Source: Eledone cirrhosa (lineage: Eukaryota). From it: a stretch of DNA of 64,000 nt. The stretch is from NCBI GenBank assembly GCA_964016885.1, contig OZ024752.1, forward strand, positions 49,600,001 to 49,664,000, read 5' to 3'. This document shows, in pieces, positions 753 to 930 of this stretch. The position numbers and the translations under genes were made by a program. Within the stretch, counting starts at the first letter, position 1. Every line of letters begins with the position of its first letter. The notes beneath the pieces are model-generated. The model ran no database searches, was not told the origin of the DNA, and saw only the letters and a program-made list of their open reading frames with translations.

Positions 753-930
753 AAAAGGCTTCTACAGGACTAGAACTATTTCACTCAGGAGAAATCATCA
801 GGCTTCCTGATGATTTCTCCTGAATGAAACAATTCTAGTCCTGTAGAAGCCATTTTTATATTAAACATTTATACTCTGCTATGTATTGAGTACCTTACTT
901 ACTGTGGTTATCCCCGATTGAACCAAGGAT
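753..930 (+). mobile_element. Short non-autonomous element (family HH-A) with fold-back palindrome 757-851, probably a Penelope-like terminal repeat
   Basis: Near-perfect inverted repeat centred at about 804, followed by a tail (tatactctgctatgtattgagtaccttacttactgtggtta) also present at 9020-9216 and 60370-60569. Flanked by TA/GA microsatellites. Confidence 0.75.
801..851 (+). ncRNA. Type I hammerhead ribozyme motif (HH-A)
   Basis: Stem I GGCUUC/GAAGCC, core CUGAUGA 807-813, stem II UUC-ucct-GAA closed by U.U, GAAA 826-829, stem III ACA/UGU, cleavage triplet GUA. Confidence 0.75.

Follow-up and report, generated by a model that had tools for sequence, protein, structure and literature searches.

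A stretch of 64,000 nt from the genome of Eledone cirrhosa (hereafter, the window) contains three palindromes that carry hammerhead-like ribozyme cores, and all three turn back at nearly the same point of the motif. What produces the second arm, and what sets the turning point? The first-pass annotation of the window proposed that the second arm is copied at each insertion by cDNA snap-back at a position defined by the ribozyme. How Penelope-like elements (PLEs) finish insertion and why inverted repeats form are open questions, and the later steps are described as unvalidated in PMC11167929. The analysis below suggests that the turning point likely marks the capped start of the element RNA rather than a site set by the ribozyme.

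Palindromic stubs and their parent element

The palindrome of copy 1 (positions 757-851) has arms of 46 nt, a loop of 3 nt and 3 mismatches; that of copy 2 (9085-9217) has 57 perfect nt on either side of a 19-nt centre, which is itself mostly self-pairing; and that of copy 3 (60434-60569) has arms of 66 nt and a loop of 4 nt. As RNA, copies 1, 2 and 3 folded at -69, -100 and -110 kcal/mol, respectively (z from -16 to -23), and none of 200 shuffled sequences was equally stable, which is far beyond chance. The centres lie 2-7 nt 5' of the core nucleotide C3, and loop II (TCCT, TAAA and ATCT in copies 1, 2 and 3) is identical between both arms of each locus. The palindromes were thus found where they had been placed, with centres within a few nt of the 5' strand of stem I and with a loop II that differs between loci and agrees between arms. 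The extent first given for the elements was too short, since it omitted a one-sided tail of 65-80 nt that is part of each of them (852-934, 9016-9084 and 60368-60433) and whose outer end meets TA-rich DNA.

In copy 1, the short, inverted arm (753-802, minus strand) keeps the hammerhead core and is missing the 5' strand of stem I, and the long arm (801-934, plus strand) runs from the predicted RNA +1 (801/802) through the ribozyme and the tail (852-934, plus strand) to its 3' end at a TA-rich flank. The type I hammerhead-like motif of this copy (802-850, plus strand), as read from the sequence, comprises stem I (802-806/846-850), CUGAUGA (807-813) and GAAA (826-829), with a predicted self-cleavage site after GUA at 845 on the plus strand. 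Copy 2 consists of a long arm with its tail (9016-9149, minus strand; core C3 at 9145, first base of the stem I 5' strand absent), two untemplated junction bases (9150-9151) and a short arm (9152-9217, plus strand) with a full stem I, a mutated core (CUGGUGA) and an outer end at the commonest short-arm end point. The long arm of copy 3 with its tail (60368-60503, minus strand) holds a complete motif of the CUGAAGA subfamily (C3 at 60498), and its short arm (60504-60569, plus strand) keeps the core and is missing the stem I 5' strand. A fourth copy lies at the window edge, with its short arm at 63971-64000 (minus strand); past the edge, its long arm is represented by only the last tail bases.

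A descriptor of the CUGANGA, GAAA and NUH core with stems I-III, which fixes most core positions, matched 157 cores. In the HH-A family, to which these copies belong, stem II is only 3 pairs long, stem III is 4 pairs long and its loop measures 8 nt; the G10.1-C11.1 pair closing stem II is replaced by U.U in nearly all 157 cores, and the palindromic CUAG of loop III may be compatible with a dimer. An Rfam scan gave no hammerhead hit at the gathering threshold and only a tRNA-like match at 958-1015. The stem II strands were unchanged in 143 of the 157 cores, the strands of stems II and III were nearly invariant, and loop II occurred in 16 variants. Copies 1 and 3 have GCUUC/GAAGC as stem I, whereas copy 2 has GAUUC/GAAUC. 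The compensatory pair reported from these copies corresponds to a change that is genuinely double-sided (61 cores versus 33, with 2 mixed), with a possible second change at the outer pair, but a complete stem I stands on at most one arm per copy (plus in copy 1, minus in copy 3); copy 2 has its full GAUUC on the arm whose core is mutated, and AAUUC on the arm whose core is intact. Across the 157 cores, the covariation signal amounts to one or two events, all in stem I and none in stem II or III. The stem I change fits constraint in source elements and would represent one event between subfamilies; any selection would act on these source elements and not on promoter-less stubs, in which the ribozyme is a passenger. 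Of the earlier suggestion that the structure is under selection, the double-sided change is what stands. Cores are present on both arms in copies 1 and 3, but none of the copies in the window carries a complete ribozyme on each strand, and a working ribozyme on both strands is unlikely because a transcript through the whole palindrome would form one long hairpin.

Several other features of the window touch on this description. Further hammerhead-like cores at 17401, 20191, 32967, 45063, 53516 and 53932 probably belong to other PLE families. A perfect palindrome at 24656-24869 (107-nt arms) is centred on a TA run, and no ribozyme core was seen in it. Adjoining copy 1 is an inverted pair (929-1259/1441-1771; 331 nt, 96% complementary) that holds the tRNA-like segment at 958-1015 and probably represents two SINE copies or a fold-back.

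Judged by sequence, copies 1-3 are 5'-truncated, promoter-less stubs of a Hydra-clade PLE, a new family of a known kind. A 27-nt word of the tail had 15,295 exact matches in the 3.0-Gb genome, and its reversed control had 0. We examined 100 loci among the tail matches listed, all within the first 38 Mb of contig C1, and kept 96 after removing L058, which coincides with L057, as well as L112, L124 and L125, which seem to duplicate L053, L119 and L121. An inverted arm with a shorter outer end adjoined 66 of the 96 tail-anchored loci, and 30 had no adjacent inverted arm; the flanks were mostly (TA)n, hence target-site duplications were unreadable. The tail ran directly into a downstream ORF in 2 of the 100 loci, and one of these ORFs is intact (713 aa), with the motifs RWR (38), DKT (116), YRDD, CxCx5C (CNCLNKEAC, 566), CxxC (CDLC, 666) and CxH (CMH, 694). 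Hydra-clade PLEs are defined in PMC8557442 by an RWK-type motif, DKT, a CxCx5C linker, CxxC plus CxH, and a C-terminal endonuclease (EN). We assigned the element to this clade because its ORF motifs agree with that definition and because the (TA)n preference and a hammerhead motif are present. A Pfam search of the 713-aa ORF gave a weak GIY-YIG match below the cut-off (E = 0.012) and no reverse transcriptase (RT) hit; its 1,403 homologues are unnamed, and by eye it resembles the Hydra RT blocks aligned in the supplement of PMC8557442.

The 3' end of an ORF was found 0.8-4.8 kb upstream of a promoter-like region in 3 of 15 long copies, with a simple-repeat-rich stretch between. This layout gives the order ORF, repeat-rich 3' region, promoter-like region, ribozyme, tail and next ORF. 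As regards the partial tandem (pLTR-ORF-pLTR) layout of PLEs, the ribozyme/tail segment lies 5' of the ORF at L038 and L064 and 3' of it at L039, L041 and L022; no single copy with the segment on both sides of the ORF was recovered, and none was found downstream of L064 within the stretches fetched. Raw DNA read depth, a rough estimate from RAD-seq, was ~100-fold higher over the tail than over the ORF start and intermediate over the promoter-like region. No GT..AG joint in the 5' leader was listed among contigs of unknown kind. The window also contains a decayed fragment (8239-8451) like the endonuclease end of a PLE ORF (35% identity).

The ribozyme segment of the HH-A family (approximately -14 to +64) additionally forms the unit of a 78-bp satellite. 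This satellite runs from ~30,497,000 to 30.85-30.90 Mb of G000:C28 (L256-L276), roughly 350-400 kb if continuous, and 7 of 7 spot samples up to 30.85 Mb carried the unit. It begins at a palindromic insertion with a left-side tail, and 55 of 113 sampled units retain the core with stems I and III. The tandem joint was also present in raw reads, and a small array was found at G000:C1:350,200,300 (L283). Tandem units of this kind could form dimeric hammerheads.

The turning point and the start of the element RNA

Five of seven reference copies carried a TATA box 29-32 nt before +1 (35-38 nt before core C3), with differing spacer sequences; of the remaining two, one had TATA 24 nt before +1 (30 nt before C3) and one had a mutated box. 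Long copies also contained CCAAT-like and C-rich boxes. From the TATA spacing, +1 is predicted at C3-6, one base before stem I. We compared this position with the inner ends of 162 arms from the 96 loci: 64 ends fell within ±3 nt of +1, 34 at +4 to +12 and 42 further 3', and only 4 fell in -40 to -4, with 18 far upstream. The centres are thus not scattered, and the recurrent fold-back point proposed for the window was borne out across loci. A wall with one-sided decay would be the pattern expected of run-off at the end of a template. Copies that begin at the wall without any inverted arm also exist (L116, L054 and TA-flanked rows among the matches listed), so the wall is not specific to fold-back.

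The coincidence of the wall with stem I in the HH-A family follows from a likely RNA start one base before stem I. We separated the start site from the ribozyme by sampling three further palindrome families present in the window (for each, 30 loci chosen as the best of 40 scored tail matches). In family D, TATA stands at -31 and the wall lies accordingly, 64 nt upstream of C3; 11 of 46 ends were at the wall (9 exactly at +1), versus 2 of 46 near the core. The wall of family B is 80 nt upstream of the core, with 12 of 45 ends there versus 0 of 45 near the core, and that of family C is 5 nt upstream, within 1 nt of the stem I 5' edge, and does not discriminate the start site from the ribozyme; neither of these two families has a canonical TATA, and +1 was assigned in them from the pile-up, after it had been seen. 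Families C and D were linked to Hydra-like ORFs, and no ORF link was established for family B.

The window representatives of these families are a family D palindromic stub at 30868-31274 (a second Hydra-like family, with a minimal hammerhead), a family B palindromic stub at 49525-49972 (also with a minimal hammerhead; further cores at 6221 and 18099) and a family C stub at 16830-17051, in which the core is CAGAAGA instead of CUGANGA and U.U is again found at 10.1-11.1. Family B has an octamer-like word ~55 nt upstream of the wall, and in long copies of family C the ORF ends shortly upstream of the segment.

The predicted cleavage site was tested as a second hot spot, and no peak of ends was found there. 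Starts at this site had 161 matches genome-wide, over tenfold rarer than wall starts, and among the 100 matches listed ~48 were point mutants of intact cores and 22 were joins through stem I itself. Since cleavage-site starts are rare and cDNAs cross the site intact, the template appears to be uncleaved.

These observations bear directly on the proposal that the ribozyme, through the edge of stem I or through cleavage, sets the fold-back position. The wall within 1 nt of the stem I 5' edge in the HH-A family and family C is what this proposal would lead one to expect, but the distances between wall and core in families D and B (64 and 80 nt) and the lack of a peak at the cleavage site are not. 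Moreover, RT would copy the stem I 3' strand first, so that the stem could not block it at the 5' edge, and the fold of the single motif (monomer) was no more stable than shuffled sequences (z from -0.5 to 0.6) and was not used as support. We therefore regard a ribozyme-defined position as very unlikely and abandon this part of the first-pass annotation; the wall tracks the TATA/initiator and carries a cap-like G.

An extra G at the 5' junctions of full-length L1 copies has been attributed to a copied cap (PMC11702581). GAUUC-subfamily copies that begin at +1 without a natural preceding C had 2,019 matches, and a hand count of 100 among the matches listed, some of which are two strands of one locus, gave G 77, T 12 and A 11 at -1. 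A strict hand filter removed 40 G rows whose G might stem from the opposite arm, from a CAG(G) word or from a repeat, along with 13 explained non-G rows, and left 37 G to 10 non-G among the matches listed (~52 to 10 with a looser filter). Starts at +2 (2,326 matches) gave G 43, T 50 and C 7 among the matches listed, and 9 G to 55 non-G after the strict filter. Counting against the +1 reading, +2 ends are no less common than +1 ends (2,326 versus 2,019), and TA-flanked +2 rows also often have a G (6 of 10). The base at -1 was G 34, A 8 and T 58 in family D (100 listed of 592 matches), many of the T's being templated, and G 45, A 34 and T 20 in family B (99 matches listed), a modest excess in which ~17 G are possibly templated. 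A first extra-G test on a small locus sample (18 of 61 versus 36 of 244) was weak and was contaminated by natural copies and chance matches. Many of the extra G's could also come from the opposite arm. In the literature searched, which takes in few subscription journals, no description of a cap G at inverted junctions of PLEs came to light. The extra G at the wall is likely a copied cap, which would mean that RT ran off a capped RNA.

Origin of the second arm

At the 47 loci where both cores are present, divergence between arms was 3.3% inside a locus, against 5.6% among loci of one subfamily. The latter figure (5.6%) was the same whether two short arms, two long arms or a short and a long arm were compared; no fixed difference set the arm classes apart, and short arms formed no cluster of their own. 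Loop II was equal between the arms in 42 of the 47 loci (permutation mean 21, maximum 30), and no TAAT/TAAA chimeras between arms were found among ~20 loci of those two loop types. The equal distances and the concordance of loop II indicate that there are no inherited left and right arms and that each insertion used one template, in line with the earlier view that the second arm is made anew at each insertion. A nearest-neighbour test of arms >50 nt gave 25 ties and 11 versus 11.

Outer ends of short arms were mostly at two points (~+60 and +67) and those of long arms at one (+136), each meeting TA. The 33 junctions analyzed comprised 12 overlaps of 1-4 nt, 6 blunt joints and 15 short inserts, several of which repeat nearby element words; the further-reaching arm was the long one in 17, the short one in 11 and neither in 5. 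The short arm reached >8 nt further 5' than the long arm at 12 distinct loci, and the reverse was true of 5 loci. Where one arm passed the wall, the other usually did too (L032, L047, L130, L039 and L101), which indicates one shared template and fits snap-back equally well. A junction with both arms at +1 and an extra G on both was found at 110 loci; it was oriented 7:7 relative to the tail in 14 loci, and a 15th has tails on both sides. L243 (G000:C1:196,961,827) is a fully symmetric palindrome in which each arm has a tail; an ordinary copy that shares its junction lies 2.3 kb away. Two further candidates were set aside: long-arm ends at the short-arm start site, as in L1-like twin priming, were looked for and were not enriched, and L024, considered as a short arm with a very long arm, was rejected as a separate insertion.

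We favour, at somewhat better than even confidence, a reading in which the RT of a Hydra-clade PLE, starting on both sides of a (TA)n cut, would copy a capped, uncleaved RNA at its 5' end, run off at the cap and leave two cDNAs to be joined head to head. The stubs correspond to the ribozyme and tail of an element that has an RT/GIY-YIG ORF, and its TATA promoter would start the RNA one base before stem I. The fixed outer ends (~+60/+67 and +136), each meeting TA, point to two RT start sites, and inner ends that stop at the wall (+1/+2), often with an extra G, are consistent with run-off and cap copying. In the last and least certain step, the two 3' ends would anneal via microhomology of 1-5 nt or short inserts, and fill-in would follow.

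The same element with the same capped 5' end could also yield palindromes from one cDNA, if it ran off, snapped back (its cap-derived C often pairing with a nearby G) and copied itself, and if the hairpin were then opened by a nick at a second site on either strand. Such self-priming was proposed for PLE palindromes in PMC3846280, and it would account for arms that always share one template and have correlated lengths, as well as for tiny inverted extensions of 3-5 nt beside TA flanks. However, priming by 1 bp with loops of 1-4 nt would be required at many junctions. The 12 loci with the further-reaching short arm, several of them nearly without overlap, and L075, which has a non-overlapping inverted upstream segment, are also awkward for snap-back, although later deletion could explain both. 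In addition, extension of both strands from two start sites in vitro needs no hairpin (PMC11167929). Although we consider snap-back unlikely on balance, two joined cDNAs fit only slightly better, about twice as well, and are favoured because they simply explain why either arm can reach further and because they match the two-site, two-strand result in vitro. Repeated snap-back of a single cDNA, resolved on either strand, could yield all of the junction types, and later deletions blur the picture.

The remaining explanations place the origin of the palindromes elsewhere. An ancestral terminal-inverted-repeat element (MITE) that moves as a ready palindrome, or palindromes made or homogenised after insertion, might be suspected from the lower divergence of arms within loci and from junction sequences that recur widely, such as the 110-locus type. 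This is nonetheless highly improbable, given that arm classes are absent and short arms unclustered, that junctions are highly varied, centres variable and outer ends unequal, that the recurrent junction is found with different loop II types and in both orientations, and that the element has an RT ORF and often no adjacent inverted arm. Library preparation can create perfect hairpins, and read depth dips at the exact centre; even so, the probability that the palindromes are an assembly or library fold-back artefact is close to negligible, as substitutions are independent between the arms (75 differences over 47 loci) and the outer ends are both fixed and unequal. Furthermore, separate public Illumina runs contained raw DNA reads with opposite-strand joints at varied positions, so that junctions of this type do not, in general, stem from assembly.

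The cap-like G and a wall at TATA+30, which across four families of one genome is not coupled to the ribozyme, point to capped, uncleaved sense RNA as the template, and the same pattern suggests that most events copy only the first 60-136 nt of the RNA. From this follow direct predictions, both for the mapping of 5' ends and for the in vitro system already available. As a more speculative extension, which we hold to be less likely than not, a double strong-stop might be the normal reaction of the Hydra clade. Both RT start sites would sit within the 5' leader, close behind the cap, and a dimer would copy one capped, uncleaved RNA twice, after which the run-off cDNAs would be joined; the ORF could be copied only if RT read through a tandem or jumped between templates, and the ribozyme, which stands 45 nt behind the cap, would be a decapping off-switch and would not process insertions. 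If this were true, the tens of thousands of stubs would constitute a base-resolution fossil map of the transcription start of each family.

Comparison with known systems

In LINE-1 twin priming, an inversion results from priming on both target strands, and the products are joined by microhomology. Twin-primed inversions start at the poly(A) end, and the inverted part does not duplicate the other arm, whereas both HH-A arms copy the same 60 nt by the RNA start. The likeness to LINE-1 lies in the extra G at the 5' junction of full-length ends (PMC11702581).

The closest parallels are the EN+ PLEs of the Hydra clade described in PMC8557442, which share with the HH-A element a single short ORF with RW(K/R), DKT, the CxCx5C linker, CxxC/CxH and, at the C-terminus, GIY-YIG, together with (TA)n targets, a hammerhead motif, and 5' truncation with an adjacent inverted copy and a one-sided tail. 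The cephalopod element Hydra-1_Obim differs from the HH-A family in its N-terminus and ribozyme, and the tail is ~70 nt in the HH-A family compared with 30-40 nt in Hydra-clade PLEs (PMC8557442). In the account of the tail given in that paper, it is ascribed to endonuclease resolution, and the inverted junctions are not mapped there to the RNA start.

The protein of a lizard PLE, Poseidon of Anolis carolinensis, cuts and extends both DNA strands in vitro and uses uncleaved RNA, with RT starts at two sites that bracket the tail (PMC11167929). The HH-A family shares the AT-rich target and would resemble it in the two bracketing start sites, the cutting and extension of both strands and a ribozyme whose cleavage is unneeded. 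In Poseidon, the start codon is overlapped by the ribozyme, and RT begins within the ORF with no homology to the target, whereas in the HH-A family the ATG (+182) is downstream of the ribozyme, of both end points and of the tail, and the ends meet the target in a short TA match. The inverted junction is not addressed in the account of this reaction in PMC11167929.

Inverted repeats have also been described for Drosophila Penelope. The Penelope insertions of Adineta vaga (PMC3846280) likewise have an inverted pLTR, an optional tail, junction palindromes, and TATA and an initiator-like motif in the pLTR. An antisense template, with self-priming on it, was proposed there for PLE inverted repeats, whereas the extra G and the wall observed here point to run-off from sense RNA. 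PLE hammerheads (PMC4209133) share the type I motif in the pLTR, a palindromic loop III and dual, opposite-strand motifs in truncated copies; they conserve G10.1-C11.1, unlike the HH-A motif with its U.U and its reduced stems II and III. The inverted arm, the tail and the opposite-strand ribozymes are thus already described for PLEs, and the insertions of the window are ordinary for the class. What these loci contribute is the TATA spacing, the cap-like G, a turning point that is not coupled to the ribozyme when families are compared, and a cleavage site without a peak of ends.
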